Part shown: one piece after another, positions 17,385 to 60,758 of the stretch
How the letters are laid out: every line of letters begins with the position of its first letter
Position numbering within the stretch: position 1 is the first letter of the stretch
From: Blastocatellia bacterium
GTDB taxonomy: Bacteria > Acidobacteriota > Blastocatellia > RBC074
Direction: 5' to 3'
DNA: 64,000 nt
Assembly: GCA_035652435.1 (NCBI GenBank)
Contig: DASRDU010000014.1
Span: 1,359-65,358 of the forward strand
Position numbers and translations under genes: made by a program
Notes under the pieces: generated by a model
Told to the model about the DNA's origin: nothing
The model's database searches: none
What the model saw: the letters and a program-made list of their open reading frames with translations, nothing else

Positions 17385-17428
17385 CGCGTGAAATGAACTT
17401 CTGTCTTCTGACGAAGGAGATTACATTG

Positions 17429-18406: not shown

Positions 18407-18424
18407 GAAGCAGGAGGGACCGCG

Positions 18425-20992: not shown

Positions 20993-20996
20993 ACAT

Positions 20997-21100
20997 CCCC
21001 GGGAGCGCACGCGGCCCGCGTGCTGGTTTGGGTCTGAAGCCCCTTGAGCGACAGATGAGTCTCTCGTCACTGGCACGCGAGCCGCGTGCGCTCCCGGGAT
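20997..21100. terminator. Long GC-rich hairpin between the PSD1 and DUF1501 genes: an 18-bp perfect inverted repeat that extends to ~28 bp with bulges, and a 65-nt loop.
   Basis: CCCGGGAGCGCACGCGGC (20998-21015) pairs with GCCGCGTGCGCTCCCGGG (21081-21098). The flanking CGCGTGC/GCACGCG extend the stem. No U-tract. Confidence 0.6.
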
Positions 21101-21111
21101 AGATACTGGCA

Positions 21112-22524: not shown

Positions 22525-22879
22525 GAGTCAAAGGGGCGATTCAGCCGGCCCCTCACTAAGCTCATTCAAGCCTGCTTAAGCCGGTACAAGACCTGCTGAC
22601 GAAGGCAGTGTTTTATTGACACTGTTCTCACTTCTTAAGGAATCGCGTGACGGGTTTGATCGAAATTGATAGAAATGAGCATTCCCGAAAATCGCGGATC
22701 AACTGACTGACACTACCTTTAGCTGGCTTTGCGGGGTTCAGTGGGCCGGACGCCGCGTCCTTTGGCAGACGACAACAGGCCGGATGTGGCGTCCGGTTCC
22801 GAATAAATTTGTGTTCCCCGCTCGAAGGCGGGGGAGGGGATTGGACTCTCACCTATCAATTACCTGAGGGGGGTTGGTT

Positions 22880-26779: not shown

Positions 26780-26796
26780 ATCAGACTCGCAGGGAT

Positions 26797-26872
26797 GGGA
26801 CAGGCGCTCACCACGGAGGGCAGGAGAGGGTCACGGAGGCTTATCCCGCCCTCCGTGGTGAGCGCCTGTCCC
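26797..26872. terminator. Perfect 25-bp inverted repeat hairpin (26-nt loop) 18 nt downstream of the TBDR stop. Probable intrinsic terminator or REP-like element.
   Basis: GGGACAGGCGCTCACCACGGAGGGC (26797-26821) pairs with GCCCTCCGTGGTGAGCGCCTGTCCC (26848-26872). No trailing U-run. Confidence 0.65.
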
Positions 26873-26958
26873 GGAGTCTCAGGGGCTGATCTGGTACACA
26901 TCATTTGAGTAGATCTCCTGCAAAAGCCCTTTCGAGGGTGACGCGCGGCTTCGAGTGC

Positions 26959-27040
26959 GGTAGCGCAAACTGTCGAGTTTGCGTCGTTTCGATAACGAAC
27001 CGCTTGATGAAGCGACACAAACTCGACAGTTTGCGCTACC
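26959..27040. repeat. Second perfect 23-bp inverted repeat (36-nt loop) in the same intergenic region, upstream of the DUF885 gene.
   Basis: GGTAGCGCAAACTGTCGAGTTTG (26959-26981) pairs with CAAACTCGACAGTTTGCGCTACC (27018-27040). Confidence 0.65.
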
Positions 27041-27267
27041 CTTTGTGTGACTTCAGTCTCTTCCGGGGTGCCTGGCTCTAAAGTTTGGACTACTTTTGCA
27101 AGAAGTCTGCCGAACCCTTAATGGTCGCGGCTCGGAAGGTTACGCCACGCCCATGAAGGGCCGGCACAACTGGAAATTGAGTCTCAAAACCGGAGGGGCA
27201 GGATTGAGGGGCGAAGGGACAAGGACTTTGTCTCTTCGCCCGTTTGTGCTAACCGGGATGGCTGATT

Positions 27268-28932: not shown

Positions 28933-29025
28933 AACTGGAACGCCATTCGGTCATCGAATATTTACTTGTCGACGCAATGTTCAATCGAACAAAGCCGGCG
29001 TGTTAACGCCTCGCAGGAAATCGCA

Positions 29026-31416
29026 ATGCCAATCACCCGAAGAAGAATAGTGCCTGTCAATCTCGCCATCGTCTCGCTCATTCTCGTGTGCGCTGCCCCG
29101 GCCCAGAAGATAACCAATGCCATCCCCGATGTTGCGCGCCCGCTGCCACTCGCGGCAGTCCGCCTGACGGGCGGGCCGCTCAAGCGCGCGCAGGATCTGG
29201 ACGCGGACTACCTGCTCAAACTCGAACCGGATCGCATGCTGGCTTTCTATCGCAAGCGGGCGGGGCTCGAACCGAAGGCGCAGCCTTACGGCGGCTGGGA
29301 CGGCGACGGCAGGAACCTGACCGGCCATATTGCCGGGCACTACCTCTCCGGCGTGAGCATGATGTACGCCGCGACAGGCGACGCGCGCTTCAAGGAGCGC
29401 GCCGATTACATCGTCCGCGAGTTCAAGGAAGTGCAGGACAAGTACGGCGACGGTTACCTCGGCGCGCTGGCCAACGGCAAAGAGCAGTTCATCGAAGTCT
29501 CCAAAGGCAACATCCGCTCGTCGGGCTTTGACCTGAACGGGCTCTGGTCGCCGTGGTACGTGTTGCACAAGACCTACGCGGGCCTGCGCGACGCGTACCG
29601 CTACACGGGTAACCGCGCGGCGCTCGAAGTCGAGACCAGATTCGCCGCCTGGGCCGAGGGGATTTTAGCGAAACTCGACGACGCGCAGTTGCAGAAGATG
29701 CTCAACACCGAATTCGGCGGCATGCCCGAAGTGCTGGCCGACCTCTACGCCGACACGGGCGACAAGCGCTGGCTCGCGCTGTCACATCGTTTCGATCACC
29801 GCGCCGTACTCGATCCGCTCGCGCGCCACGAGAACATCCTGCCCGGGCTGCACGGCAACACGCAGGTGCCGAAGATCCAGGGCTCGCTCGTGCGCTACGC
29901 TTACACGGGCGACAAGGCCGACGGCGACGCGGCGCATTTCTTCTGGGAGACTGTCGTCAGGCATCACAGCTTCGCCACGGGGGGCCACGGCAAGGACGAA
30001 TACTTCGGCCCGCCCGACCGGTTGAGCGACCGCGTTGACGGGCGCACCGCCGAGACCTGCAACGTCTACAACATGATCAAGATGACGCGAAAGCTCTTCG
30101 CGCTCCACCCCGACATCAAATACGCCGAGTTCCACGAGCGCGCGCTCTTCAACCACATCCTGGGCTCGATGGACCCGGAGGACGGGCGGACCTGTTACAT
30201 GGTGCCCGTCGGGCACGGCGTCCAGCACGAGTACCAGGATATGTTCCGCAGCTTCACCTGCTGCGTCGGCTCCGGCATGGAGAGCCACGCGCTGCACGGC
30301 GACGGGCTCTATTACGAATCGGGCGACAAGCTCTGGGTCAACATCTACGCGCCCTCGACGGCCAGATGGGAGGCGGCGGGCGCAGACCTCGTGATGGACA
30401 CCAATTTCCCCGAAGGCGAAGCGGCGACGCTCAAGCTGACGCTCAAGGCGCCCCGACAGTTCACGCTGGCGCTGCGCCGCCCTTCGTGGGCGGGCGACGG
30501 GTTCACCGTCAGGGTCAACGGTCAGCCCGTCAAACAGGTTGCTCCTCCCGGCTCGTATGTCGAACTCAGCCGGAAATGGAAGACGGGCGACACGGTCGCG
30601 TTGGCCCTGCCGAAGGCGCTGTGGCTGGAGCCGTTGCCCGACAACAAACGTGTGACCGCGATTATGTGGGGGCCGCTCGTCCTGGCGGGTGACCTGGGGC
30701 CGGAGCGCGCTCGCGGCCGCGGCGCCCAGGGGGCAGGTCAGGCGGGCGCGCAACCGCTCAGCATCCCTTCGCTCGTCGCGGCGGAGCGGCCCTTGTCGGA
30801 GTGGGTTAAGGCGGCTGACAATCCGGCCACCTTCCGCACCGCCGGAGTCGGGCGCGAGCAGGACGTGGATCTCGTGCCGTTTTACCGCCTGCACCGGCGC
30901 GCGTACTCAATCTACTTTGACCTGTTCACACCCGCGGAGTGGGAGAAGAAGGCCGCCGAGCTGCTCGCCGAGCGGGAGCGGCAGCGCAGGCTGGAAGCGG
31001 CGACGGTCGCCTTCGTGCAGCCGGGCGAGATGCAACCCGAACGCGATTTCAACCAGCAGGGCGAAGAGACCAGCCCGGTGCGCATCGCCGGCCGGCCCGG
31101 CCGCAGCGCCAGAAAATGGTTCTCCTTCGACCTGCCGGTTGACCCGGCCCACCCGGTGAAACTGATCGCGACTTACCACGACGAAGAGCGGGCGACCCGC
31201 ACGTTCGACGTCCTGGTGGACGGCACGCGCGTCGGCGAACAACGCGTCGAGCGGCACCGCCCCGGCAGTCCGAGCAAAGGCTTCTTCGATGTCGAATACA
31301 CCATTCCCGCCGACCTGGCCAGGGGAAAACAGAAAGTGACGGTGCGCTTCCAGGCGACGGGCGGGAATGAGACCGCCGGCGTCTTCGGCGTCCGCATGGT
31401 CCGCGCGGACAAGTGA
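29026..31416 (+). CDS. GH127 (DUF1680) beta-L-arabinofuranosidase-like protein, paralog 2.
   Basis: Start at 'MPITRRRIVPVNLAIVSLILVCAAPAQ' after AGGAAA. 'WYVLHKTYAGLRD', 'NTQVPKIQGSLVRYAYTG', 'FTCCVGSGMESHALHGD'. About 45% identity by eye to the copy at 12079-14457, including the C-terminal extension. Confidence 0.85.
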   Translation: MPITRRRIVPVNLAIVSLILVCAAPAQKITNAIPDVARPLPLAAVRLTGGPLKRAQDLDADYLLKLEPDRMLAFYRKRAGLEPKAQPYGGWDGDGRNLTGHIAGHYLSGVSMMYAATGDARFKERADYIVREFKEVQDKYGDGYLGALANGKEQFIEVSKGNIRSSGFDLNGLWSPWYVLHKTYAGLRDAYRYTGNRAALEVETRFAAWAEGILAKLDDAQLQKMLNTEFGGMPEVLADLYADTGDKRWLALSHRFDHRAVLDPLARHENILPGLHGNTQVPKIQGSLVRYAYTGDKADGDAAHFFWETVVRHHSFATGGHGKDEYFGPPDRLSDRVDGRTAETCNVYNMIKMTRKLFALHPDIKYAEFHERALFNHILGSMDPEDGRTCYMVPVGHGVQHEYQDMFRSFTCCVGSGMESHALHGDGLYYESGDKLWVNIYAPSTARWEAAGADLVMDTNFPEGEAATLKLTLKAPRQFTLALRRPSWAGDGFTVRVNGQPVKQVAPPGSYVELSRKWKTGDTVALALPKALWLEPLPDNKRVTAIMWGPLVLAGDLGPERARGRGAQGAGQAGAQPLSIPSLVAAERPLSEWVKAADNPATFRTAGVGREQDVDLVPFYRLHRRAYSIYFDLFTPAEWEKKAAELLAERERQRRLEAATVAFVQPGEMQPERDFNQQGEETSPVRIAGRPGRSARKWFSFDLPVDPAHPVKLIATYHDEERATRTFDVLVDGTRVGEQRVERHRPGSPSKGFFDVEYTIPADLARGKQKVTVRFQATGGNETAGVFGVRMVRADK

Positions 31417-31438
31417 AGTTGAGACAGGAGCGCCCGGC

Positions 31439-33001
31439 CTATTTCAACCGCAGCCGCAGAATAGTCAGCGAATGCGCCGGGAAGGTATAACTGAAGCCGT
31501 TATTTTCCACTGACGCAGAAAATGTGCGCGTGACGGGCCGGACTTTTTTGTCGTCGCCGAAAGTGTGCGTCGCTTTCAGGTCGGGGTGATTCATCTCCCA
31601 GACGCCGACCTCGCTTTCCAGCCGGCCCTCCTGATTATCAATCCGCGTCGCAATGTCTTTATCCTTGCTGCGATTCAGGACGTTCACGCAGATCGCGCGT
31701 TCCGTCGCGTTGTACGTCGTCGAAACGTCCAGATAACGCAGCGGCGGCCGGTTGCCGACTTTGTAGGTCGGCGCGGAGACGAAAACGTCGAGAGCCTTGT
31801 TCCCGCGCTGTTTTGAGAACTCCGCCAGCGGGAAGTAGATCGGTTGCAGGAACAGCCCCTGTTTATTGGTCATGATCGGCGCAATCACATTGACCATCTG
31901 TGCCAGGTTGGCCATCTTCACGACGTCGGCATGGCGGAAGAACGAGTTGAAGAACATCCCCATCGCCAGCGCGTCCTCGAAGTTATAAACCTCCTCCAGC
32001 TTCTCGCGGTTCCCGGTGCGGTACCAGACGTTCCATTCGTCGTAGGCGATGTAGAGCGGCCGCGGGCTCGGGTTGCCCGACTGCGCCTGGCGGATCAGCC
32101 CCGCGGTGATCTCGATGTAATGGTCAATCGTCTGCGACCACGCCAGGAATTTTTCCAGATCGTTGTCGCGGTTGTTGATGTAGGTGTGGATCGCGATGTA
32201 GTCGGCGGTGTTCCTGAGCGTCTGGAGTACGGTGCGATTCCAGTGAATCCAGTCGGCGCCGTAGTTGCTCGACCCGCTGGCGACCAGTTTGATGTCGCGG
32301 TCCACGAGTCGCATCGCCTTGGCCGCTTCGAGCGCGAATTTTGAATACTCCTCGGCGCTCTTGTTGCCGAGCTGCCACGGGCCGTCAATCTCATTGCCGA
32401 GCGCCCAGTATTTGACCTTCCAGGGCTGCTCGCGCCCGTTCCTGCGCCGCTGGTCGGCCCACCAGGTGTGGCGCGACTCGTTGCAGTACTCGACCCAGTG
32501 GCGCGCGTCGTCAATCGTGCCGAGGCCCGCGTTGATGCAGATGTAGGGCTCGGCCCCGATCATCTCGCAATACCTCAAAAACTCATCGGTGCCGAAGCGG
32601 TTGCTTTCCAGATCGTTCCAGGCCAGCTCGGGCCGCACCGGGCGCTGATCCTTCGGCCCGATGCCATCCTTCCAGTTGTAGCCCGACGCGAAGTTCCCGC
32701 CCGGCCAGCGCAGGATCGAAACGTTCAGCTGTTTGACCACATCCAGCACGTCCCTGCGGTAGCCGTCCCTGTCGGCAAGCGGGCTGCCTTCTTCATAGAT
32801 GCCGCCGTAGATCATCCGCCCCAGGTGTTCGGTGAAGTTGCCGAAGAGCAGCGGACTGACTTCGCCGATGGTGCGGTCAACGTCAATCTTGATGCGCGCC
32901 TGCGGCGCCACCGCGGACTGCCCCTCGGCGGCGGGCAGTCCGACGAACAGCGGGCAGGCGACGATGATGATCGTGAGCAAACGAGTCGCAAGAGTGCGCA
33001 T
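31439..33001 (-). CDS. GH51 alpha-L-arabinofuranosidase, paralog 2 (Sec signal).
   Basis: '[21 protein letters not shown]', '[13 protein letters not shown]', 'YDEWNVWY', and the C-terminal beta-sandwich. Its stop lies 22 nt from the convergent GH127 stop. Confidence 0.9.
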
Positions 33002-36553: not shown

Positions 36554-36806
36554 CGGTTTGTTTCCGGCCGGCGGGGTGCAGCCGGCGCAAGGGACAGCCA
36601 GGTTAAAAACGAACGATCCGGTTCCGCGTAGAGAGTCTGCGCATGCCCCACAAAGGCGCGCATTCCGCATAATGAAAGCGCGGGGGAAAGTAATTCGTCT
36701 TGTATTCACTCAGGGGCGATTGGATGGCATTGCAGGGGCACTTTAGAGAAACATCGCCAGCCTCTTCCCCTGACGCCCGGACACACAATCGCAGACCGAT
36801 CCGGGA

Positions 36807-37517
36807 TTACTTCCGCTGTTGCTTGATGAACTCCTTCATATCACACCCCGCTTTCGTGATGTGACGTTCCAGCAGCCGGCTGGCCGCCCCGGCGTCGCGC
36901 CGGCGGCACAGCTCCAGAATCGTCCGGTGTTCATCCCTCGCGTGACGGTGGGCATCACGCGAGAAGAGGATGTGCAGGCGGATGTAACGATCCGCGTTGT
37001 TGTTGATCGTCTGGATGAGCGAGAGCGAGCGCGCCCGGCCCGCCGCCCGATAAAGTGTCGAATGAAACTGCCAGTGCAGTTCGCCCCAGACGTCGAAGTC
37101 CGATTCGTCGTTGAGCGCCCGCTCGTAGTCCTCCAGCACCTTTTCGGCGCGCGCGAGGTCTTCGTCAGTCAGGCGCGGAACGGCCCGGCGCAGGGTGAGG
37201 CTCTCGATCGCCGCGCGAATCTCGAACAGCTCCTCGATCTCCTCAGGGGAGAGCGCGGCCACGACTGCGCCACGATGATCAATGATCTTGATCAGGCCTT
37301 CGGCCTCGAGCTGGCGAAAGGCCTCACGCAGGGGGATCCGGCTGACCGCGAATTCCTCGGCGATGGCGTGCTGGCGCAACTGCTCCCCCTCGCGTAATTC
37401 GCCGCGCAGGATCTTCTCCCGCAGCCGGTCGGCCACGGCGGAGGTCAGCGTCTGGCGGCGAATCGGCTGGCGGGAGTCGAGACCCCCATTGGGTTGTGCG
37501 TTCATCTGCCTCAGCAT
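36807..37517 (-). CDS. GntR-family (FadR/FCD subfamily) transcriptional regulator.
   Basis: wHTH 'RLREKILRGELREGEQLRQHAIAEEFAVSRIPLREAFRQLEAEGLI' plus an FCD-type helical C-domain. GGAGG RBS 8 nt upstream. It sits inside the minus-strand glycan operon. Confidence 0.85.
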   Translation of the reverse strand: MLRQMNAQPNGGLDSRQPIRRQTLTSAVADRLREKILRGELREGEQLRQHAIAEEFAVSRIPLREAFRQLEAEGLIKIIDHRGAVVAALSPEEIEELFEIRAAIESLTLRRAVPRLTDEDLARAEKVLEDYERALNDESDFDVWGELHWQFHSTLYRAAGRARSLSLIQTINNNADRYIRLHILFSRDAHRHARDEHRTILELCRRRDAGAASRLLERHITKAGCDMKEFIKQQRK

Positions 37518-37695
37518 TGCTCAGCCTCCGGGATTCGGGAGTCGCTATTCAAGGTCGCACTGATGTGATAACACAACGCCCATGCCGCCTCAAGAGAGGA
37601 CTACTCGTTTCAGCCGGAAAGTCCTGGAGAAGTGAAAGCCGGCTTGAACCGGCTCAGGGAAAAAATCGGCGGCCGACGGTCCCGGCACATCCGCC

Positions 37696-49954: not shown

Positions 49955-49984
49955 TTGACGGCCGCACAGAGCATATTGTATACA
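49955..49984 (+). promoter_or_regulatory. Putative sigma70-type promoter (TTGACG-18-TATACA) for the AraC / hydroxyproline operon. It sits in a 750-bp divergent intergenic region.
   Basis: TTGACG at 49955-49960 and TATACA at 49979-49984, ~125 nt upstream of the AraC start. This is the only AT-rich patch in an otherwise ORF-free 49359-50109 region. Confidence 0.4.
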
Positions 49985-50109
49985 ATCCTCACCTGACAAG
50001 GCAGCGTACCTTTTTCAATGCCTGTTCTCGTTGGCATCGGTCGGAAGTCGTGACTGCAACCTGACCTCCCTCCGGAGGACATTCGGGGGAAACAAAAGGA
50101 GAAGCCACC

Positions 50110-50931
50110 ATGTCCACGCAACTGGCTCCCGGGAGTTACTATGGTGAGGCTTTGCGCAGCCGCAAGGTCGGGGGCTTCGAACTCTCAGAGCGCGTCTACC
50201 CGCCGGGGTTCCGGACCCCGAAACACACCCACAAACGGGCGCTCTTCTGCTTCGTGATGGCGGGCAATTACACGGAGACATACGGGGGCAGGATGCGGGA
50301 GTGCAAATCTTCGGCCCTTTTGTTTCACCCGCCCGGAGAACTGCACGCCGAACATTTCCATGACGCGGGCGGGCGCTCGTTCATCATCGAGATGGAGCCC
50401 GGCTGGCTGGCTCAGATCCGGAAACAACTGGCCGTCGCGGACAATTCCGCTGACTTTCGCGGCGGCGTCTTCGAACTGCTGGCGCGCAAATTGTACAGAG
50501 AGTTCGCCCAGCTCGACAGCGCCTCACCGCTCATTATCGAAGGCCTGATGATGGAGATGCTGGGCGAGACCGTGCGCCGGAGCCCCGCGCCGGAGCGGCA
50601 CAGCCCGCCGCGCTGGCTGCAGCAGGCCAGAGAACTGCTCCACGCGCGCTTCACCGAAAACCTCACGCTGGCCGAGGTCGCCCGGAATGTCGGCGTCCAC
50701 CCGGTCCACCTGGCCCAGACGTTCCACAAGACCTACGAGTGTACCATCGGGGATTACGTGCGCAGGCTGCGCATCGAATATGCCTGTCACGAGCTGGCCG
50801 CGTCCGCCAGACCGATTGTGGACATCGCCCTGGCGGCGGGCTTCTGCGATCAGAGCCATTTCACGAGGACGTTCAAGCGCGCCATCGGCGCTGCACCTTC
50901 TCAATATCGTGAATCTCTCCGCGACTCCTGA
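50110..50931 (+). CDS. AraC-family transcriptional regulator (cupin sensor + HTH_AraC).
   Basis: An N-terminal cupin, and a C-terminal double HTH 'LTLAEVARNVGVHPVHLAQTFHK...DIALAAGFCDQSHFTRTFKRAIGAAPSQYR'. Confidence 0.85.
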   Translation: MSTQLAPGSYYGEALRSRKVGGFELSERVYPPGFRTPKHTHKRALFCFVMAGNYTETYGGRMRECKSSALLFHPPGELHAEHFHDAGGRSFIIEMEPGWLAQIRKQLAVADNSADFRGGVFELLARKLYREFAQLDSASPLIIEGLMMEMLGETVRRSPAPERHSPPRWLQQARELLHARFTENLTLAEVARNVGVHPVHLAQTFHKTYECTIGDYVRRLRIEYACHELAASARPIVDIALAAGFCDQSHFTRTFKRAIGAAPSQYRESLRDS

Positions 50932-51165
50932 CGTTCGAGCGATTGAGGGGCGACCCGGCGCAGGGGATCGGAATTATAAGGCGGTCCTGACCACCGCCGT
51001 GGGTGGCTTCAATACTAATCGCGTTCAAGCAGGCTTACTGAGATTCAAGACTCCTTACCGGGGCGTCTGTTTTACTGCTGACTCACGGCATACGGCAGAT
51101 TGAGAAAATGTTCCGGCCCCGCTCACGGCGACCGGGAACAGCTGGCACTGGGAGAAAAGGATTGC

Positions 51166-52119
51166 ATGGAAGATCGGAAGATGAGGCGGGTGAAAGTGAT
51201 TGATTCGCACACGGGCGGCGAACCGACCCGCGTCGTGGTCGGTGGCGGGCCCGACCTTGGCGGCGGCCCCCTGGCGGAACGCCTGGAGCGGTTCAGGGCG
51301 GAATACGATCATTTTCGCTCGGCGGTAGTGAATGAGCCGCGTGGCAATGACGCCATCGTGGGCGCACTGCTGTGTGAGCAGACCGACCCCGCGTGTTCGG
51401 CGGGCGTGATCTTCTTCAACAACGTCGGCTACCTGGGCATGTGCGGCCACGGCACGATCGGGCTGATGGTCACGCTGGCTTATCTGGGCCGGATCGCCCC
51501 CGGCACGCACCGCATTGAAACTCCCGTCGGCACGGTCGAGGCGACGCTCGAGGAAGGCGATCACGTCAGCGTGGCCAACGTGCCAAGTTACCGACTGGCC
51601 GCGAACGTCGCCGTAGACGTGCCCGGCCACGGCCCGGTCACAGGCGACATCGCCTGGGGCGGCAACTGGTTCTTCCTCGTCAACGGCAACGGGCACCAGC
51701 TCACACTCGAAAACCTGGAGGCGCTCACCGATTTCACCTGGCGGATCCGTCAGGCGCTCAGGCGCCAGGGGATCACCGGCGCCGACGGGCGGGAGATTGA
51801 CCACATCGAACTGTTCGCGCCCTCGCATCTCGACGGCGTCAACAGCCGGAACTTCGTACTCTGCCCGGGCAAGGCCTACGACCGCTCGCCGTGCGGCACG
51901 GGCACGAGCGCCAAGCTGGCCTGCCTCTATGCCGACGGCAAACTGCCGGAAGGGCGGGTCTGGCGGCAGGAGAGCATCGTCGGCAGCCTCTTTGAAGGCA
52001 CCGTCCGGGCGGACGGCGACAGGATTTATCCGACGATTCGCGGCTCCGCTTACGTCAACGCCGAGGCCGACCTGATTCTCGATGAGCGAGACCCCTTCTG
52101 CTATGGAATCCGCCGATGA
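51166..52119 (+). CDS. 4-hydroxyproline 2-epimerase (proline racemase family, two-Cys type).
   Basis: '[22 protein letters not shown]' closely matches the family N-terminus. Catalytic Cys pair 'MCGHGTIG' and '[12 protein letters not shown]'. Both Cys present implies an epimerase/racemase, not a dehydratase. AAAGGA RBS upstream. Confidence 0.85.
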
Positions 52120-53246
52120 CCCGGAGCGTCCCTGATCTGGTCATTGTGGGCGGCGGCATTGTCGGCGCGGCCTGCGCCCTCGAAGCCGCGCGCGCAGGCC
52201 TGCGCGTCGTGGTCATTGAGTGTGGCGTGGTCGGCGGCGGCGCGACGGCAGCGGGGATGGGGCACATCGTCGTGATGGACGATTCCGAGGCGCAATTCGC
52301 GCTGACGCACTATTCGCAACGGCTCTGGCAGGAGGTCGCGCCGGAACTGCCCGGCGAAGTCGAGTACGAGGAGTGCGGGACGATCTGGGTTGCCGCCGAT
52401 GAAGAGGAGATGGACGAGGTGCGGCGCAAGGCGGCCTTTTACCAGGGGCGCGGCGTCGCGGCCGAGATTCTCGACGCCGAAGCGCTCGTGCGGGCCGAGC
52501 CGAACCTGCGACCGGGCCTGGCCGGCGGCCTGCTGGTCCCCGGCGACGGAGTGGTCTATCCGCCCTGCGCCGCGCGGTACTTCCTCGAACGGGCGCAGGC
52601 GCTCGGGGCGCAATTGCATCAGGGACACTCAGCCGTCGCCCTGAGCGACGAAGGTGTCAGGCTGGACGACGGCACGTTCATCGCCGCGGGCGTGACAGTC
52701 AACGCAACAGGGAGCTGGGCTCCGCTGCTCACGGCCGGCATTGAGGTGCAGAAGCGCAAAGGCCACCTGCTGATTACCGACCGCTACCCCGGCTTCGTGC
52801 GGCATCAACTGGTCGAACTGGGTTACCTCAAGAGCGCGCATTCGATCAACTCCGATTCGGTCGCCTTCAACGTCCAGCCCCGCCGGACGGGCCAGGTGCT
52901 GATCGGTTCATCGCGGCAGTACGGCGTGGATGATACGAAAGTCGAAGCCGCAATGCTCAGCCGGATGCTCGCGCGCGCCGAAGAATACATGCCCGGCATC
53001 ACGCGGCTCTCGGCCATCCGCACGTGGACGGGGTTCCGCGCCGCGACGCCCGACAAACTGCCGCTCGTCGGCCCCTGCCCGGGCTTTGACCGGCTCTACC
53101 TTGCGACAGGACATGAGGGCTTGGGTATTACCACCTCAACGGGCACGGCAAAGCTGCTCGTGGATCAACTGCTCGACCGCCCCCCGGAGATCCCCGTCGA
53201 GCCTTACCTGCCGAGCCGCACGCATCAGGAGGTAATCCATGCCTGA
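52116..53246 (+). CDS. FAD-dependent oxidoreductase, D-amino-acid-oxidase fold. Putative D-hydroxyproline dehydrogenase beta (catalytic) subunit.
   Basis: '[29 protein letters not shown]' Rossmann FAD motif. ATGA overlap with the epimerase stop. Sits in a Hyp operon context. Confidence 0.75.
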
Positions 53247-53487
53247 AACTGTCTCGCTGTCGGTCAACGGCCGTGCCGTCACCATGCCGGAAGGCAGTAC
53301 AGTCTCGGCCGCAGTGGCCGTCTCGGGCGCGCCGGCTTTCCGCCGGTCGGTGACGGGCGAACCGCGGGCGCCGGTGTGCGGGATGGGGATCTGTTTTGAA
53401 TGTCGCGTGACGATCAACGGGCACGCGCATGCGCGCAGTTGTCAGATCCTCTGCCGCGACGGGATGGACGTGCGAACTGATGAATAG
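53239..53487 (+). CDS. Small (2Fe-2S)-binding subunit (D-hydroxyproline dehydrogenase gamma-like; opine oxidase / HCN synthase small-subunit type).
   Basis: An 82-aa protein with 'CGMGICFECRVTINGHAHARSC' Cys cluster. Its start overlaps the beta-subunit stop by 8 nt. Confidence 0.7.
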   Translation: MPETVSLSVNGRAVTMPEGSTVSAAVAVSGAPAFRRSVTGEPRAPVCGMGICFECRVTINGHAHARSCQILCRDGMDVRTDE

Positions 53488-54763
53488 CCCTCGTCACAAT
53501 TACGACGTGCTGGTGGTCGGCGGCGGCCCGGCGGGACTGGCGGCGGCCGTCTGCGCCAGGCAGGGCGGCGCGCGCGCGGCCATCGTGGACGACAACCCCG
53601 GCCTCGGCGGTCAGATCTGGCGCGGCGAGCAGCACAAACCGAGTACGCCCGAGGCCGCCCTCTGGCTCGGGCGCGCCCACGCGGCGCGGGTCGAATTCGT
53701 GAGCGGCGCCCGCGTTTACGATCAGCCCGAAAAGGGGCTGTTGCTGGCCGAAACGACAGACGGGGTGATCGAACTCGGCTATCGCAAACTGGTTCTGGCG
53801 ACGGGCGCGCGCGAACGCTTTCTGCCGTTCCCCGGCTGGACGCTGCCGGGCGTCGCGGGCGCGGGCGGGTTGCAGGCGCTCGTCAAATCGGGGTTGCCGA
53901 TTGAGGGCCGGAAGGTCGTTGTCGCCGGCACCGGGCCGCTGCTCCTGGCCGTCGCGGCTTACCTGCGCAGGCGCGGCGCTGAGGTGTTGTTGATCGCCGA
54001 GCAGGCGCCGCCGGGCCGGCTGCTCTCGTTCGGCCTGGGTTTATGGCGCACGCCGGGCAAGATCGTTCAGGCGCTCAGGCTGCGGCGCGAACTGGCCGGC
54101 GTCCCTCACCTCCCGGGCTGCTGGCCCGTGGCGGCGAACGGCGACGGGCAACTGCGGAGCGTCAGTCTCCGCCGCGGCCGTAAGACCTGGGACGTGGCCT
54201 GCGATTATCTGGCCTGCGGCTTTCACCTGGTGCCCAACGTCGAACTGGCCGTCTTCCTGGGCTGCGGGCTGCTCGACGGCGTCGTGCGGGTGAACGAGTA
54301 TCAGCAGACGACCGTCGCGGACATTTACTGCGCCGGAGAACCTACGGGCATCGGCGGCCTGGAACTCTCGCTCGTCGAGGGCCGGATCGCCGGTCTCGCC
54401 GCGACCGGCAGGCAGGAAGAGGCGCGGGCGCTCTTTGCCGAACGCCGCCGGCTCGGGCGGTTCGCCGAACTGCTCAACCGCACCTTCGCCCTGCGCGAAG
54501 AGTTGAAGAGCCTGCCCGAGCCCGACACGATCATCTGCCGCTGCGAAGACGTGAGCCTTGCGCGGCTGGGTAAGCAGACCGCGTGGCGCGCCGCCAAACT
54601 GCACACGCGTTGCGGCATGGGACCGTGTCAGGGGCGTGTTTGCGGCGTGGCGATAGAGTTCCTGTTCGGCTGGCAGCCGGAATCGGTGCGCCCGCCGGTC
54701 TTCCCCGTCAGGGTCGGCAGCCTGATCCGGGGCGCCCATCTCACTGCCGGGCAACGGCAATAA
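53477..54763 (+). CDS. Pyridine nucleotide-disulfide / FAD-binding oxidoreductase (D-hydroxyproline dehydrogenase alpha-like subunit).
   Basis: Start at 'MNSPRHNYDVLVVGGGPAGLAAA' (ATG overlaps the gamma stop). A second Rossmann motif 'KVVVAGTGPLLLAV', and a C-terminal Cys pair 'CRCEDV...CGMGPCQGRVC' (BFD-like [2Fe-2S]). Confidence 0.75.
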   Translation: MMNSPRHNYDVLVVGGGPAGLAAAVCARQGGARAAIVDDNPGLGGQIWRGEQHKPSTPEAALWLGRAHAARVEFVSGARVYDQPEKGLLLAETTDGVIELGYRKLVLATGARERFLPFPGWTLPGVAGAGGLQALVKSGLPIEGRKVVVAGTGPLLLAVAAYLRRRGAEVLLIAEQAPPGRLLSFGLGLWRTPGKIVQALRLRRELAGVPHLPGCWPVAANGDGQLRSVSLRRGRKTWDVACDYLACGFHLVPNVELAVFLGCGLLDGVVRVNEYQQTTVADIYCAGEPTGIGGLELSLVEGRIAGLAATGRQEEARALFAERRRLGRFAELLNRTFALREELKSLPEPDTIICRCEDVSLARLGKQTAWRAAKLHTRCGMGPCQGRVCGVAIEFLFGWQPESVRPPVFPVRVGSLIRGAHLTAGQRQ

Positions 54764-54785
54764 TCAACACGACTATTCACCGAGG

Positions 54786-55694
54786 ATGAAAACCATGGCA
54801 ATGAAATGGCAGGGCGTGATGCCCGCAATCACTACCGGCTTCAGGGAGGACCTGAGCATTGACCACGAATTTGTGGCCAGACACGTCAGCTGGCTCGTGG
54901 ACAACGGCTGCACCGGCATCGTTACGCCGGGGAGCCTGGGCGAAGGCAACACGCTGACGTTTGAAGAACGGGGCGCGCTGTGGGCGACCGTGGTGGGGGC
55001 CGTCGGCGACCGCGTGCCGGTCGTGGCGGCGATCTCCGCGCTCAGCACCGCAGAGGCGGTCGAGCAGGCCAAAACGGCCGCCGGCAAAGGATGCCGGGGG
55101 TTGATGGTGCTGCCGCCGTACGTTTACAAAGGCGACTGGCGCGAGATGAAGGCCCACGTCGCGGCCGTCTTCAAGGCCACGAAACTCTCCTGCATGCTCT
55201 ATAACAATCCTGTCGCCTACGGCACTGACTTCCTGCCCGAACAGATTCGGGAGCTGGCGGAAGAGTTCGAGAATTTCCAGGCGGTCAAGGAGTCGAGCGC
55301 CGACGTGCGCCGCGTGGCGGCGATCAGAACTCTGGTGGGCGGCCGGCTGGATGTCTTCGTCGGCGTGGACGACGCGATTGTCGAGGCCATCCCGGTCGGC
55401 GCGGTCGGCTGGGTCGCCGGGCTGGTCAATGCGCTGCCGAAAGAGTCAGTTGACCTCTTCAATTACGCCGCGCGGGGTGAGCTGGAGAGGGCGCTCAAGC
55501 TCTATCACTGGTTCCTGCCGCTGCTGCGGCTGGACACCGTGCCGAAGTTCGTGCAGCTGATCAAACTGGTACAGCAGGCGGTCGGGATGGGGAGCGCCCG
55601 CGTGCGACCGCCGCGGCTGGAGCTGGTCGGCGCAGAGCTTGAGCAGACGAACTCCCTGATTCAGGAAGTACTCAATAATCGTCCATCGTTGTAG
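54786..55694 (+). CDS. Dihydrodipicolinate synthase/NAL-family lyase. In this context, putative delta1-pyrroline-4-hydroxy-2-carboxylate deaminase.
   Basis: DHDPS-family TIM barrel ('GVMPAITTGF', 'GCTGIVTPGSLGE', Schiff-base Lys region 'LYNNPVAYGTDF'). The alternative start ATG 54795 has better RBS spacing. Confidence 0.8.
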   Translation: MKTMAMKWQGVMPAITTGFREDLSIDHEFVARHVSWLVDNGCTGIVTPGSLGEGNTLTFEERGALWATVVGAVGDRVPVVAAISALSTAEAVEQAKTAAGKGCRGLMVLPPYVYKGDWREMKAHVAAVFKATKLSCMLYNNPVAYGTDFLPEQIRELAEEFENFQAVKESSADVRRVAAIRTLVGGRLDVFVGVDDAIVEAIPVGAVGWVAGLVNALPKESVDLFNYAARGELERALKLYHWFLPLLRLDTVPKFVQLIKLVQQAVGMGSARVRPPRLELVGAELEQTNSLIQEVLNNRPSL

Positions 55695-56177
55695 TTTATC
55701 GAGCGTGTGGGGCGGAGACTTTCACTGTCATCGCACTTCATCCGGCGCCCGGGCATCAGTCTCCGCGGCTATTATGCGTGGGGGGCTGCCGCGCGGTCTC
55801 AGCCGATGGTCTCACGCCCCGTCGGCAGCAGATGATTTGCCGGCACTCCCAGGGTGCGCAAGGTCGTTCCCTGTTCGGTATGATATGATCCGCGAACAGT
55901 GGGCGAAGTGAGTGGCAACGGTCAGTCTGTTCTGACGTGCGACGGCTGGCGAAGCGGTGAATGGCGAGTGATCTGCACTGAGAGGCAGGATGCCATTCAC
56001 CCCTCCCCGGGCGCTGCCGCCGCAGCGCGATCCTGATCAGGTCGTCGCCGGACCAGTGCCCCGGGCGTGAAGCACTCGCCCGGCCATCCGCCCACCTCTG
56101 ACAGACCATCAGGCGCAGAGGCATTTCTTCCTGCGGCATGATTCCGGTCATTTTCTTTCGACATTCAAGAGGGGCTG

Positions 56178-56969
56178 ATGGAGCAGGAACTTTCCGTTGA
56201 CGATAGAAGAGCTCAGGGGATTTTGAGAGAGTTACTTCGTTCGGGCGAGATTACGGTCGAACAGATGGCCAGGGAATTCGGGGTGTCGGCTTCGACCATC
56301 AGGCGCGATCTGCGCGACCTCGAACATCAGGGGCTGCTGCGCCGCATGCACGGCGGCGCGGTGTCAGTCGAGCCGGCGCTCTATGAACCTTTCCGCCACG
56401 TCTCATCCTTCGGCGAACAGGAGCAGCAGTGCGCCGCGGAAAAGCGCCGGATCGGGCTGGCGGCGGCGGAGATGATCGCCGACGGCGAGATCGTCGGCAT
56501 CGGCGCGGGCACGACGACGACCCAGGTCGCCCGCAGCATCCGCCATCGCAAGAACATCACCGTCGTCACCAACGCGGTGAATATCGCCATGGAGTTAAGC
56601 CACCGCAGCGACCTGAAGATTTTTATGTCGGGCGGGTTCCTCAGCCCCGACTGGTTCGCGCTGGTCGGCGCGGCGGCTATCCAGAGCGTGAGTGAGATGT
56701 TCGTGGATAAAATCTTCGTCGGCGTCGACGGCATTCACCCGGAACACGGCCTGACGACGAACTACCCCGACCAGGCGGCGATACACCGCCAGATGATGCG
56801 ACAGGCCCGCATGCGCGTCGCCGTCGCCGATCACCGGAAACTGGGGGTGACGGGCACCACCCTCATCTGGCCGACCAGGGATATTGATCTTCTCATCACT
56901 GACAAAGGCGCAACCAGAGCTGCGCTTGCCCCCTTCACAACCCGGGGCATCAAGGTCCAGAAGGTCTGA
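56178..56969 (+). CDS. DeoR/GlpR-family transcriptional regulator.
   Basis: HTH 'ITVEQMAREFGVSASTIRRDLRDLEHQGLLRRMHGGA', and a C-terminal DeoR sugar-phosphate-binding domain. Confidence 0.85.
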   Translation: MEQELSVDDRRAQGILRELLRSGEITVEQMAREFGVSASTIRRDLRDLEHQGLLRRMHGGAVSVEPALYEPFRHVSSFGEQEQQCAAEKRRIGLAAAEMIADGEIVGIGAGTTTTQVARSIRHRKNITVVTNAVNIAMELSHRSDLKIFMSGGFLSPDWFALVGAAAIQSVSEMFVDKIFVGVDGIHPEHGLTTNYPDQAAIHRQMMRQARMRVAVADHRKLGVTGTTLIWPTRDIDLLITDKGATRAALAPFTTRGIKVQKV

Positions 56970-57110
56970 GGGGCACTTCAATCACTCTCGTTGAATCCTC
57001 GGGGCCCGAATCCCTGAACATCTGGTCTTGACTCGATGCTCATTTTAGGAATAAATGAGCATCGCCTGTGATTGAATAATCCCCGCCCGTAATTAAGGAG
57101 CAGCGAGGCT

Positions 57111-58154
57111 ATGGTTTGGGAAGAGCGGTGGCACCCCCTGCGCGAAGAATGGGTCATTGTCGCGGCGCATCGCCAGAACCGCCCCTGGAACGGCGAGACG
57201 GTTCGGCACGAGGAAGCGGCCCTGCCCGCTTATCTGCCCGACTGTTACCTGTGCCCCGGTAATGCGCGCGTCAGCGGCGCGCGCAACGAGGCTTACACCA
57301 CGACCTTCGTTTTTGATAACGATCATCCGTGCGTCGGATTCGACGCGCCGCAGGAGTTAACGCCGCCGACGGGCATTTACCGTGACCGGCCCGCCGCCGG
57401 CATCGCGCGTGTCGTCTGTTACAGCCCGAATCACGGCGTCACGCTGGCCGAACTTGAAGTGGGCGAGATCGCCGGGCTGCTGCGCGTCTGGCGCGAGCAG
57501 TATGTCGAACTGGGCGGCCACCCGCTGGTCAACCACGTGCTGATTTTCGAGAACAAAGGTGAGGCCGTCGGCGTGTCCAATCCGCACCCGCATTGCCAGA
57601 TTTACGCCACCAACTTCGTCTTCAAAACCATCGAGACCGAGGCCTGCGTCTCCGAACGTCATCTGGCCGAAACGGGGCGCGTACTCTTTCAGGACATCCT
57701 GGCCGCCGAGCGCGCCGACGGCCGGCGGATCATCTTCGAGAATGAGTCGGCGGTGGCCTTCCTGCCGTACTTCGCCCGCTACGCCTATGAATGCTACGTC
57801 GCGCCGAAGCAGACGCATGCGAGCCTCGCCACGTTCACCGATGCGGAATTGCATGATTTCGCCGCCGCGCTCAAACAGCTGCTGGTGCGGTACGACAACC
57901 TCTGGCGGATGCCGTTCCCATATGTGATGACGCTGCATCAGGCCCCGACCGACGGCGGCGATTACCTCGGCTTTCACTTCCACATCGAATTCCACCCGCC
58001 GCTGCGCAAGCCGAACCTGCTGAAATACCTCGCCGGGCCTGAAATCGGCGGCGGCAATTTCCTCTCCGACACGGCGCCGGAAGAGAAGGCGGCCGAATTA
58101 CGCGCGCAACCGGACACCCACTACAAACAGGCGAAGCGGGAGGAGGCAGGGTGA
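57111..58154 (+). CDS. galT: Galactose-1-phosphate uridylyltransferase (class I GalT, HIT superfamily).
   Basis: '[16 protein letters not shown]', zinc site 'DCYLCPGN', active site '[13 protein letters not shown]' (HPH-x-Q). Collinear with E. coli GalT. Confidence 0.85.
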
Positions 58155-59215
58155 ACGGACCATCAGGCGGCAGTAGCGATTTCTCGCCGGCCCCCGACGT
58201 GATGCCGCTGCTTGAACCATTGCGCCGCCTGCATGAATGCGTGCGCGATGCCGTGGTCGCGGCCTGCGAGAGAGCTGCGCTTGAAGATCTGGCGCGCGTG
58301 GACGACGACGATTCGGCCGGCGACACGATTTACGCCGTCGACCGCGTCAGCGAAGAGTTGTTGATCTCACTGTTCGAGCGTGAAATCGCGCCGCTCGCGC
58401 CGCTCGTCCTCGTCGGCGAAGGGTTGCCCGGCGGGCGCATCGTCCTGCCGCGTGGCTCTTCAGAGGAAGACGCGGTGTGGCGCGTGATCGTTGACCCGAT
58501 TGATGGCACGCGCGGGCTGATGTATCAGAAACGCAGCGCGTGGGTGCTGACCGGGGTCGCCCCGGACCGGGGCGCCGAAACAGACCTGCGTGACATCGTG
58601 CTGGCCGTCCAGACAGAGATCCCGCTGGTCAAGCAGCACCTCTGCGACTCGCTCTGGGCGGTGCGCGGTGGGGGCGCCCGGGCGGAGCGGTTCAACCGCC
58701 TGAGCGGCGAACGCGCCTCACTGCCGCTGCGACCGTCCAGGGCGGCAAGTATCCGTCACGGCTTTGCCGGCCTGGCACGATTCTTCCCCGGCGCGCGTGA
58801 AGTCCTCGCGGCGATTGATGAAGAGGTCGTGCGCAGTGCGCTCGGCGACGTCGCACACGGCAAGGCGCATTGTTTTGAAGACCAGTACCTGTCGAGCGGC
58901 GGGCAGCTTTACGAACTGATCGCCGGGCACGACCGGTTCATCGCCGACCTGCGCCCGCTGATGGAGCCACTGCTCCGCGAGCGCGGACTCAGCCTGGGCA
59001 TCTGCTGCCACCCGTACGACGTGTGTACGGAGCTGATCGCGCGTGAACTCGGCGTGATCGTTACGGACGAGCGCGGAGGGCCCCTGCGTGCGCCGCTTGA
59101 TGCGGAGGCCGATGTCGCGTGGGCCGGGTACGCGAATGAGCGGATCCGCGCTGAAATCGAACCGCCGTTGCAGCGCGCACTGCGGGCACGCGGATTGTTG
59201 AGTGATGCCGCATAA
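58151..59215 (+). CDS. Divergent inositol-monophosphatase/FBPase-family (FIG) sugar-phosphatase-like protein.
   Basis: Metal-site motif '[15 protein letters not shown]' (DPIDGT), and a degenerate C-terminal '[22 protein letters not shown]' in place of WDxAAG. Overlaps the galT stop (ATGA) and the kinase start. Confidence 0.6.
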
Positions 59216-60698
59216 CATTCCTTCAGAGTATCGAATCGTCCGCGGCGACGCGCGCGGACTGCCTGACGTCGCGGCTTTCATTGCGACGCTCAACTCGCTC
59301 GACGCGCACCCTTCACCGGAGGCCCATGATTTATTCGATGGCCGGTCTGAACTGATCGTCACGCGCGCGCCGGGTCGCCTGGACGTGATGGGCGGGATCG
59401 CGGATTACTCCGGCTCGCTCGTCCTGCAGTGGCCGATTCGGGAAGCGACTTTTGCCGCGCTGCAAACCGACGGCGAACGAAAGATTACAATCGTCAGCCT
59501 CACGCACGATGCCGGGCGGGAAACCAGGTTTGAAATGCCGCTCGCCGATTTCGAGACCGGCAGCGGGGCGGTTGATTACGCCGCCGCCCGCAGTTATTTC
59601 CGGCGGGACGCGGCGCGGCTCTGGGCGGCGTATGCGGCGGGCGCCTTTCTGGTGCTGATGCGCGAGCGGGGCGTCGGGTTCGGGCGGGGCGCACGCATCC
59701 TGATCTCTTCGCAGGTGCCGGAAGGCAAAGGCGTCAGCTCTTCGGCGGCAATCGAAGTCGCGGTGATGTCGGCGGTGGCGGCCGCGTTCGGGATTGAAAT
59801 CGCCCCGCGCGAGATGGCGCTGCTCTGCCAGAAGGTCGAGAACCTGGTCGTCGGCGCCCCGTGCGGCGTGATGGATCAGATGACGTCGGTCGGCGGCGAA
59901 GAGAACCGGCTGCTGGCGCTCCTGTGCCAGCCCGCTGAATCGCGGGGGACGGTCGCACTGCCGGAAGACCTGGCCGTGTGGGGGATTGATTCGGGCGTGC
60001 GCCATTCGGTCGGCGGGGGGGATTACGGCTCGGTGCGGACAGGCGCCTTTATGGGCTATCGGATTATTGCCGAGCTGGCCAGCCTGACGGCGTCACGTCG
60101 CGCAGACGGCGAGGTGGTGAGCGTTGATGACCCGGTCTGGGACGGCTTTCTGGCGAACGTGACGCCCTCGGAATTCGAGCAGACGTTCGCCGCGCGACTG
60201 CCGAAGCAAATGGAGGGCGGCGAGTTTCTGGCACGCTACGCTGGGACAACGGACGCGGTGACGCGCGTTGATCCGGGGCGGAGTTATACGGTGCTTGTCC
60301 CGACGGCGCACCCTGTTTATGAGCATTTCCGCGTTCAGTCGTTCGCCGAACTGCTCGGCACCGGGGCGGGTGAACGTCGCAATCAGCTGCTGGGCGAGCT
60401 GATGTATCAATCACACGCGAGCTATTCGGCCTGCGGCCTCGGCTCCGAAGGCACCGACCGGCTCGTCCGGCTGGTGAGGGCCGAAGGCGCAGCCGGCGGA
60501 CTGTACGGCGCGAAGATCACAGGCGGCGGCAGCGGCGGGACTGTCGCCGTACTCGGGCGGCGCGGCGCGGATGCTGCCGTGCGGCGAGTGGCCGAAAAAT
60601 ATGCCGGGGTGACCGGTCACCGTCCATACGTCTTCTCCGGCTCGTCACCGGGGAGCGCGGCGTTCGGTCAGTTGCAGTTAAAGAGAACGCTCGTTTAA
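59202..60698 (+). CDS. GHMP-family sugar kinase with a galactokinase signature (498 aa, larger than canonical GalK).
   Basis: Galactokinase N-terminal signature '[21 protein letters not shown]' (compare GalK 'APGRVNLIGEHTDY'), and the GHMP ATP motif '[20 protein letters not shown]'. Confidence 0.75.
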
Positions 60699-60758
60699 AG
60701 GGGAGGGGGATGCGGCGATAGTCTCTCGCCCGACCCTGCTGACCGAATAAGGATAGAA

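Follow-up and report, generated by a model that had tools for sequence, protein, structure and literature searches.

A hydroxyproline catabolic operon of a Blastocatellia bacterium and a 36-nucleotide element shared with outer-membrane protein genes

In a stretch of 64,000 nucleotides from an uncultured soil bacterium of the Blastocatellia (Acidobacteriota; contig DASRDU010000014.1; this whole stretch is called the window here), the region from position 50,110 to 55,694 encodes an AraC-family regulator and the proteins LhpA, LhpB, LhpF, LhpE and LhpC, which are predicted to degrade trans-4-hydroxy-L-proline (4-hydroxyproline, Hyp). Judging from the sequence, we are highly confident that 51166-55694 is one translationally coupled operon leading from trans-4-hydroxy-L-proline to alpha-ketoglutarate semialdehyde. 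A 36-nucleotide element located upstream of lhpA recurs in the window in front of genes for outer-membrane proteins.

Gene layout of the lhp locus

The following genes are located in this region:

50110-50931, plus strand: AraC-family regulator (Pfam AraC_binding, cupin-type, and HTH_18)
51166-52119, plus strand: lhpA, trans-4-hydroxy-L-proline 2-epimerase, 317 amino acids (Pfam Pro_racemase, 336 bits)
52116-53246, plus strand: lhpB, D-hydroxyproline dehydrogenase beta subunit (catalytic, FAD), 376 amino acids (Pfam DAO, 243 bits)
53239-53487, plus strand: lhpF, gamma [2Fe-2S] subunit, 82 amino acids (Pfam Fer2_4, E 1e-22)
53480-54763, plus strand: lhpE, alpha subunit, 427 amino acids, with FAD/NAD-type Rossmann fold and C-terminal cysteine cluster (Pfam Pyr_redox_2)
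54795-55694, plus strand: lhpC, protein of the dihydrodipicolinate synthase (DHDPS) family, 299 amino acids (Pfam DHDPS)

Open reading frame (ORF) listing, translation and Pfam agree that these six ORFs lie where a first-pass annotation of the DNA had placed them. lhpA-lhpB-lhpF-lhpE-lhpC form a single unit at 51166-55694 on the plus strand, and the order of the dehydrogenase genes is B-F-E (beta-gamma-alpha), not B-E-F as had been claimed. The starts at 51166, 53480 and 54795 (giving 317, 427 and 299 amino acids) come from independent gene calls on two public contigs of identical sequence (GCA_037025565.1 and the Logan assembly of SRR5581483), the two that carry the identical DAO protein. Consecutive genes had been described as overlapping by 4-11 nucleotides, and this holds for three junctions read directly from the sequence: lhpA/lhpB with 4 nucleotides (ATGA, 52116-52119), lhpB/lhpF with 8 nucleotides (53239-53246, with AGGAGG just upstream of the junction) and lhpF/lhpE with 8 nucleotides (53480-53487). 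It does not hold for lhpE and lhpC, which are separated by 31 nucleotides up to the called start (22 if counted to the first ATG), nor for the AraC gene and lhpA, between which 234 nucleotides are located. The lhpB, lhpF and lhpE subunits are translated in a coupled manner. The AraC gene, whose ATG is preceded by the Shine-Dalgarno sequence AGGAG, is a separate transcription unit and not a part of the operon.

No RNA family was found in the whole window at the Rfam gathering thresholds, thus the 234-nucleotide region upstream of lhpA contains no known riboswitch or leader. A promoter scan of 49300-56250 returned two promoter-like sites where 0.6 were expected; they are located within lhpC and in the intergenic region between the divergent outer-membrane protein gene and the AraC gene, in both cases on the minus strand. 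Terminator-like sites occurred only at chance level in the same interval and none was seen after lhpC. The 483 nucleotides between lhpC and the next gene, encoding a DeoR-type regulator (55695-56177), are without genes; searches of this gap for terminator-like sites and Rfam families found neither, and it contains a 13-nucleotide inverted repeat (55953-55965 / 55992-56004, 92%).

Enzymes of the predicted pathway and their conservation

The lhpA/BFE/C pathway has been characterised in Pseudomonas as well as in Azospirillum, and for Streptomyces it has been predicted. Our Pseudomonas reference proteins were taken from the neighbourhood of a record in a plasmid collection, in which a P. aeruginosa gene is annotated as 'lhpB: D-hydroxyproline dehydrogenase subunit beta LhpB'.

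The assignment of the first enzyme as a 4-hydroxyproline 2-epimerase was borne out. LhpA scores above the equivalog cut-off of the NCBIfam model for this epimerase (NF010577, 452.5 vs 442), shows 63.7% identity to the P. aeruginosa protein (full-length BLASTP), and matches PA1268 (PDB 2AZP) with E 4.3e-127. It aligns from end to end with the characterised epimerase 4HypE from P. fluorescens (PDB 4J9W). Cys88 and Cys236 have been named as the catalytic pair (PMC4113996). Both catalytic cysteines are retained in LhpA, within the motifs MCGHG and DRSPCGTG, and LhpA would use such a Cys/Cys pair to convert L-Hyp to cis-4-hydroxy-D-proline. It is very unlikely that 4-Hyp is only a side substrate of the operon and that its main one is a different imino acid, for example D-proline or an isomer of 3-hydroxyproline. 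Promiscuous enzymes are known in the proline racemase superfamily (PMC4113996), and a metagenome locus (L098) encodes a second, 36% identical paralogue of LhpA (3829-4791) just upstream of the 36-nucleotide element and lhpA. The LhpA-4J9W match (E 3.6e-128), however, lies past the threshold of E<=1e-110, at which clusters of this superfamily are expected to be isofunctional (PMC4113996), and the marker of the 3-Hyp route, a pyrroline-2-carboxylate reductase of the OCD or MLD2 type, was not found in the Pfam scans of the window.

The second activity had been predicted to reside in a heterotrimeric oxidoreductase with FAD, 2Fe-2S and pyridine-nucleotide subunits, and Pfam, cofactor motifs and similarity to P. 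aeruginosa all support this. LhpB is 51.8% identical over its full length to P. aeruginosa LhpB (8e-91 against the plasmid records), LhpF 41.6% to the gamma and LhpE 51.8% to the alpha subunit (full-length BLASTP). Motifs of this family are GxGxxG in beta and alpha, Arg-x-Trp (FMN motif) in beta and C-x4-C-x2-C-x11-12-C in gamma (PMC4575208). LhpB carries GGGIVG and RTW, matching the two beta motifs, and LhpF, with 82 amino acids inside the range of about 80-110 expected for gamma, carries C-GMGI-C-FE-C-x12-C. LhpE contains GGGPAG and C-R-C-x22-C-x4-C; its spacing of 22 is outside the range of the alpha motif as printed, C-x-C-x(15-20)-C-x4-C (PMC4575208), yet identical to that of P. aeruginosa LhpE. 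The tandem order beta-gamma-alpha is the same in P. aeruginosa and in at least 66 related loci. The LhpB-LhpF-LhpE flavoprotein would oxidise cis-4-hydroxy-D-proline to delta1-pyrroline-4-hydroxy-2-carboxylate (Pyr4H2C), with beta as the FAD-containing catalytic subunit, gamma carrying the [2Fe-2S] cluster and alpha carrying FAD and the cysteine cluster.

A function of beta-gamma-alpha as opine dehydrogenase (OdhBCA, Oox/Nox type), sarcosine-oxidase-like enzyme or L-proline dehydrogenase is highly improbable: these enzymes have the subunit architecture and cofactor motifs in common (PMC4575208) and LhpB passed no NCBIfam beta-subunit model (best match ThiO, below its cut-off), but the high full-length identities of LhpB and LhpE contrast with only 91 bits between LhpB and the beta chain of the Pyrococcus L-proline dehydrogenase (1Y56_B), and related loci flank these genes with a 4-Hyp epimerase (46/73) and an LhpC-like deaminase (54/61). 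In addition, the first-pass annotation had named best matches to opine or sarcosine oxidase clusters as the result that would speak against its proposal; 47 plasmid records matched beta at E<=1e-20, and among the 40 of them that are listed none is an Agrobacterium Ti plasmid (Oox/Nox). A flavin-containing opine dehydrogenase was therefore rejected on the basis of these listed matches and of the neighbouring Hyp epimerase and deaminase genes. OdhB-C-A has the same alpha4beta4gamma4-type architecture, motifs and overlapping genes (PMC4575208), but differs in substrate and context and shows no similarity at the level seen for LhpB and LhpE. LhpF had no match in the PDB. The HCN synthase HcnABC was also considered and ruled out by gene order, which is beta-gamma-alpha here and small Fe-S subunit, alpha-like, beta-like in hcnA-B-C.

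For LhpC, the proposed role as Pyr4H2C deaminase was likewise upheld. It is 40.1% identical (222 bits, full-length BLASTP) to P. aeruginosa LhpC, for which we used the DHDPS-family gene located upstream of the NADP aldehyde dehydrogenase gene, whereas no solved DapA structure exceeds 130 bits. In an alignment with E. coli DapA the Schiff-base lysine and the tyrosine of YNNP are retained, and DapA Thr45, Tyr107 and Arg138 are apparently replaced, as in P. aeruginosa LhpC. LhpC would dehydrate and deaminate Pyr4H2C via the Schiff-base lysine, yielding alpha-ketoglutarate semialdehyde. PDB 3NA8, a P. aeruginosa 'putative DHDPS', was considered as LhpC and dropped because it reaches only 124 bits, compared to 222 bits for the real lhpC product.

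The operon had been called complete, and this was overstated: no dehydrogenase for the semialdehyde is encoded in the window, and therefore the pathway encoded here ends at alpha-ketoglutarate semialdehyde. Neither Pfam, applied to those large ORFs that were considered genes, nor tblastn with representatives from related loci detected an Aldedh, amino-acid permease or SSF protein in the 64 kb, which agrees with the earlier statement that the semialdehyde dehydrogenase (KGSADH) and a Hyp transporter are missing. In related Acidobacteriota an Aldedh-family protein of about 530 amino acids, 46% identical to P. aeruginosa LhpG, is encoded directly after lhpC in 36 of 54 informative loci, and a gene for an APC amino-acid permease is located upstream in 15 related loci. 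Neither was found in the closest relatives (L003-L012). In L098 an aldehyde dehydrogenase gene is located about 0.7 kb past lhpC. The last oxidation, to alpha-ketoglutarate, is presumably encoded elsewhere in the genome, outside the window.

The lhp genes form a common and stable acidobacterial operon. The nearest proteins are found in metagenome-assembled genomes of Blastocatellia and other Acidobacteriota, and homologues with 63-86% identity are abundant in acidobacterial genomes and metagenomes. A scan with one genome per species yielded 80 loci, nearly all from Acidobacteriota, with 63-85% identity for beta. tblastn maps placed gamma, alpha and DHDPS downstream of beta in the 54 of 61 informative loci mentioned above, and LhpA immediately upstream of beta in the 46 of 73. 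In the closest genome relative (L003, 85% beta identity) only fragments of S9 peptidase, GH127 and GH31 genes are located upstream of lhpA (5869-7038), which suggests a deletion of the region equivalent to 34-42 kb of the window.

Compared with P. aeruginosa (L083), the five enzymes, the order beta-gamma-alpha and the short stop/start overlaps of lhpA/B/F/E are the same. There, lhpA, lhpB, gamma and alpha are in tandem at 14928-18467, and lhpC and lhpG follow about 12 kb away (30022-32612), whereas here lhpC is inside the same operon and the window is without nearby lhpG, ABC transporter, lhpH/I/D and LhpR orthologue. The hyp cluster of S. meliloti presumably includes an ABC transporter. This cluster (HypRE, HypO, HypD, HypH) follows the same logic of epimerase, D-Hyp oxidation and DHDPS-family deaminase; however, its HypO has one subunit only and is not related to the enzymes with three subunits, and the dehydrogenase HypH is part of the cluster (PMC6608401). 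In S. coelicolor, SCO6289-SCO6293 likewise form one operon of beta, gamma, alpha, deaminase and epimerase without a semialdehyde dehydrogenase nearby, but the epimerase gene is last (first here), the regulator is the GntR repressor HypR (AraC-type here), and the proteins are reported to be 33-41% identical to those of Pseudomonas (PMC6608401), compared to 40-64% here. The operon itself is ordinary and well conserved, and adds little beyond the characterised pathway.

The 36-nucleotide element and the units that it heads

The element located 114 nucleotides upstream of lhpA reads TAATCGCGTTCAAGCAGGCTTACTGAGATTCAAGAC. A repeat search revealed a 44-nucleotide similarity between the upstream regions of lhpA and of the divergent outer-membrane protein gene, from which the consensus TAATCnnnTTCAAnnnnnCTTACnnnnATnCAAGAC was refined. 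The copies in the window are:

51016-51051, plus strand: element copy, lhpA downstream
49558-49593, minus strand: element copy with 52 bits, about 200 nucleotides upstream of the outer-membrane protein gene starting at 49358
22557-22592, plus strand: element copy, outer-membrane protein gene starting at 22874 downstream
9399-9434, plus strand: element copy, outer-membrane protein gene starting at 9539 downstream
37621-37656 and 36697-36732, both minus strand: weaker copies from the weight-matrix scan

The four strong copies (0.00 expected in the window) each have the orientation of the gene downstream, and the element precedes lhpA and all three TonB-type outer-membrane genes of the window. 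In 20 shuffles the weight matrix found no match. The element contains a TNCAAG direct repeat at 21-nucleotide spacing and has a -35-like GAC at its end, and in two copies a TA-rich hexamer follows 17 nucleotides downstream. Such a layout would be typical of activators overlapping the -35 box, and the element is a candidate activator site or promoter. It is kept upstream of lhpA in four related genomes (L005, L007, L008 and L009), and additional copies outside the training set of the weight matrix are located on the far side of the AraC gene in L005 (35 bits, in front of an S9 peptidase gene) and L007.

When JGI metagenomes were scanned with nothing but the DNA pattern, 69 contigs of the same lineage were obtained, one of which (L147) is syntenic with positions 40229-55694 of the window. 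The first ORF downstream of the element encoded outer-membrane proteins (25), DUF1680 glycosidases (7), S9 peptidases (5), LhpA (3), BNR proteins (2), DHDPS (1), the alpha subunit (1), a protein of the type of the 300-amino-acid HEFSH zincin described below (1), or an unassigned product (15).

The units headed by the element, together with a second regulator gene, are:

37696-49358, minus strand: divergent unit for an outer-membrane protein, a 614-amino-acid protein, zincin, S9 peptidase and GH127 (Pfam, synteny with L147)
45483-49358, minus strand: outer-membrane barrel of the divergent unit (Pfam)
43557-45401, minus strand: 614-amino-acid protein of the divergent unit, no Pfam family
42605-43507, minus strand: 300-amino-acid HEFSH zincin (structure model)
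40229-42562, minus strand: DPP-IV-type S9 peptidase (Pfam)
37696-40458, minus strand: GH127 beta-L-arabinofuranosidase (Pfam), true start uncertain
22557-31416, plus strand: third unit, with element (22557-22592), barrel (22874-26779), DUF885 (27268-28932) and GH146-like beta-L-arabinofuranosidase (28966-31416)
9399-14457, plus strand: fourth unit, with element (9399-9434), outer-membrane protein pseudogene (9539-11675) and a gene of the DUF1680 beta-L-arabinofuranosidase family (11917-14457)
36807-37517, minus strand: GntR/FCD regulator (Pfam), second candidate Hyp regulator

The start of the GH127 gene is uncertain because its ORF overlaps the S9 gene. The window encodes three PF07944 (DUF1680, GH127/GH146) proteins, and each of their genes is located on the same strand and downstream of an outer-membrane protein gene headed by the element. 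The protein encoded at 28966-31416 matches the GH146 enzyme BT0349 (PDB 5OPJ) with E 2.7e-147, and its zinc/nucleophile motifs E-x-C (ETCN) and C-C (TCCVGSG) align with those of 5OPJ. The fold of the 300-amino-acid zincin, as modelled, is closest to Pro-Pro endopeptidases, which it may resemble. Neither this protein nor the 614-amino-acid protein gave anything significant in Pfam or in PDB sequence searches. The 614-amino-acid protein, encoded between the outer-membrane protein and the zincin, has a hydrophobic segment at its N-terminus and a linker rich in Pro, Gln and Gly; no homologue was found in the 80 related genome loci. The outer-membrane protein gene at 9539-11675 (plus strand) is a pseudogene or an assembly artefact: compared to a homologue of 1286 amino acids (L144), residues 547-1101 are missing and the frame shifts near 11124-11143.

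The adjacent AraC-family protein is probably the one that binds the element. Homologues with 64-82% identity adjoin lhp genes or the element at four genome loci and in 12 metagenome contigs; the latter are 12 of the 69 contigs with the element. In the lhp region of P. aeruginosa, an AraC-type protein is encoded at 23096-23893 (L083), which we take to be LhpR. It aligns with the protein described here in the helix-turn-helix region alone (34% over 91 amino acids), and since the ligand-binding domain does not align, the latter was rejected as an LhpR orthologue. The GntR protein is 38% identical over its full length to the GntR protein encoded next to P. aeruginosa lhpA, and about 50% identical to GntR proteins encoded near the lhp operon in 22 related loci.

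A proposed regulon for hydroxyproline-rich glycoproteins of plants and its alternatives

Since the units headed by the element encode GH127/GH146 enzymes, a DPP-IV-type peptidase and a zincin, the likely substrate is plant hydroxyproline-rich glycoprotein. The evidence tilts slightly towards the lhp operon of this Blastocatellia-like lineage belonging to a regulon marked by the 36-nucleotide element, likely for such glycoproteins; the core operon and the regulon taken together we regard as a likely explanation of the locus. Through the common element, the AraC-type protein would activate the promoter of lhp and those of the three units for uptake and degradation. The glycoprotein, for instance with Hyp-O-beta-arabinosides of the extensin type, would lose its sugars and be cleaved, the resulting small peptides would be taken up, and the enzymes of the lhp operon would catabolise the Hyp set free. 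More tentatively, soil Acidobacteriota might possess a regulon dedicated to the use of extensin, with lhp as its terminal module and a single AraC-type regulator acting at the 36-nucleotide direct-repeat operator. Four functions would be co-activated in this case: TonB-dependent uptake, removal of Hyp-O-beta-L-arabinofuranosides by GH127/GH146, cleavage of the Pro/Hyp-rich backbone by the S9 peptidase of the DPP-IV type together with a zincin that had not been classified before and resembles Pro-Pro endopeptidases, and catabolism of the Hyp released.

To our knowledge, the known bacterial systems of Bifidobacterium and Xanthomonas handle only the arabinose side chains of hydroxyproline-rich glycoproteins. 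The GH146 enzymes XeHypBA1 and Bll4HypBA1 cleave Araf-beta1-Hyp (PMC10850190). B. longum hypBA1/hypBA2/hypAA and Xanthomonas XeHypBA share with the window the GH127/GH146 cysteine glycosidases with E-x-C and C-C and the presence of GH43/GH51 in the region, but use the sugars only, whereas here the glycosidases are linked with peptidases and Hyp catabolism (PMC7263609, PMC6085000, PMC10850190). No GH121 beta-L-arabinobiosidase (HypBA2) was identified in the window; no search aimed at this family was made. In the Xanthomonas paper we found no mention of Hyp-catabolic genes beside XeHypBA (PMC6085000). In the literature searched, the coverage of which was incomplete, we found no integrated bacterial system for plant hydroxyproline-rich glycoproteins and no publication in which Hyp catabolism is connected with beta-L-arabinofuranosidases in Acidobacteria.

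Hyp genes are also tied to the use of beta-L-arabinofuranosides in other gene arrangements. By a raw count, DUF1680 or at least two L-arabinose catabolism genes are found within 10 kb in 23 of the 80 related loci. In 16 related Terriglobia loci (L029, L032, L037, L045, L048, L049, L057-L060, L062-L064, L072, L079 and L081), beta-gamma-alpha-lhpC-Aldedh without an adjoining epimerase gene is divergent from an L-arabinose unit of araB (ribulokinase), araD (L-ribulose-5-P 4-epimerase), a fucose-isomerase-like gene and a sodium:solute symporter gene, often with DUF1680. Representatives of araB and araD pass the NCBIfam cut-offs; the isomerase-like gene beside them has no NCBIfam model above cut-off and could, as we infer, encode the L-arabinose isomerase. 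The cultured relative Granulicella tundricola MP5ACTX9 carries an annotated but uncharacterised block on pACIX901 (375-400 kb) with lhpA-beta-gamma-alpha-DHDPS at 59, 59, 46, 52 and 61% identity. Its lhp genes are likewise surrounded by DUF1680 genes (two), by genes for DUF885, for peptidases and for GntR and by one for an outer-membrane protein of the TonB type, and the block also contains M1 peptidases, a PPIase and aminopeptidase P. It differs in an aldehyde dehydrogenase gene directly upstream of lhpA and in the lack of an AraC gene, and the element was not found.

Several points weigh against the regulon. The element also precedes arylsulfotransferase-like, PSCyt/DUF1501 and BNR genes, which have no obvious link to glycoproteins. 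An alternative sigma factor could use it as a promoter, or a regulator other than AraC, for instance the GntR protein, could bind to it. Most of the 80 related loci (57) have neither DUF1680 nor ara genes within 10 kb. Acidobacterial genomes are rich in glycosidases, and some of the co-location may therefore be accidental. Arabinan, arabinogalactan protein and rhamnogalacturonan-II are also substrates of DUF1680 enzymes, which leaves more than one possible glycan target. Furthermore, besides the semialdehyde dehydrogenase an inner-membrane transporter for Hyp or peptides is absent from the 64 kb.

Alternatively, lhp may be a stand-alone operon that uses free Hyp or Hyp-peptides from any source, for instance from collagen or from the necromass of microbes and animals, next to incidental neighbours and with the element as a common promoter type of the lineage. 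The lhp/hyp clusters of Pseudomonas, Sinorhizobium and Streptomyces have indeed been discussed for collagen-derived Hyp (PMC3958920, PMC6608401), and both the loci without neighbouring arabinose genes and the unrelated genes behind the element would be expected. We nevertheless consider a stand-alone operon rather unlikely. The element is limited to four strong and two weak sites among about 15-20 transcription units (estimated from the ORF layout of the window), and the weight-matrix scan did not find the element upstream of the gal genes of the window. In addition, the 12 contigs in which AraC adjoins the element are independent, and three different arrangements join Hyp genes with beta-L-arabinofuranosidase or L-arabinose genes.

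Hydroxyproline-rich glycoproteins are a sizeable nitrogen-containing fraction of plant cell walls. In the proposed regulon, one common cis-element would connect the glycosidases and prolyl peptidases with the transporters of the outer membrane and with Hyp catabolism; this linkage is seen again in other arrangements. It provides a testable picture of how soil Acidobacteria, which are abundant but hard to culture, may obtain carbon and nitrogen from plant glycoproteins, and G. tundricola offers a cultured relative with a similar block.

Among the other genes of the window, Pfam identified two GH51, a GH43, a GH31, a sulfatase, an M20 dipeptidase and a sugar-binding protein, in addition to the three TonB-type barrels and to galT, a galactokinase-like kinase and galE. 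The latter belong to a series directly downstream of lhpC (56178-61745, plus strand) of DeoR, galT, an inositol-monophosphatase-like gene, an atypical galactokinase-like kinase of 498 amino acids, which remains below the NCBIfam cut-offs, and galE. DeoR and the kinase are also located directly upstream of beta-gamma-alpha-lhpC in three other genomes, two of which have galT there as well; the loci named for the DeoR/gal linkage are L041, L042, L053 and L153. Galactose derived from extensin or arabinogalactan protein may be the reason for this repeated linkage. At 18425-22524 (plus strand), a gene pair for PSCyt1/PSCyt2/PSD1 (DUF1549/DUF1553) and DUF1501, which is typical of Planctomycetes, follows BNR/sortilin-like and arylsulfotransferase-like genes. 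The PSCyt/DUF1501 unit is also preceded by the 36-nucleotide element in relatives (L090, L142, L151 and L152).

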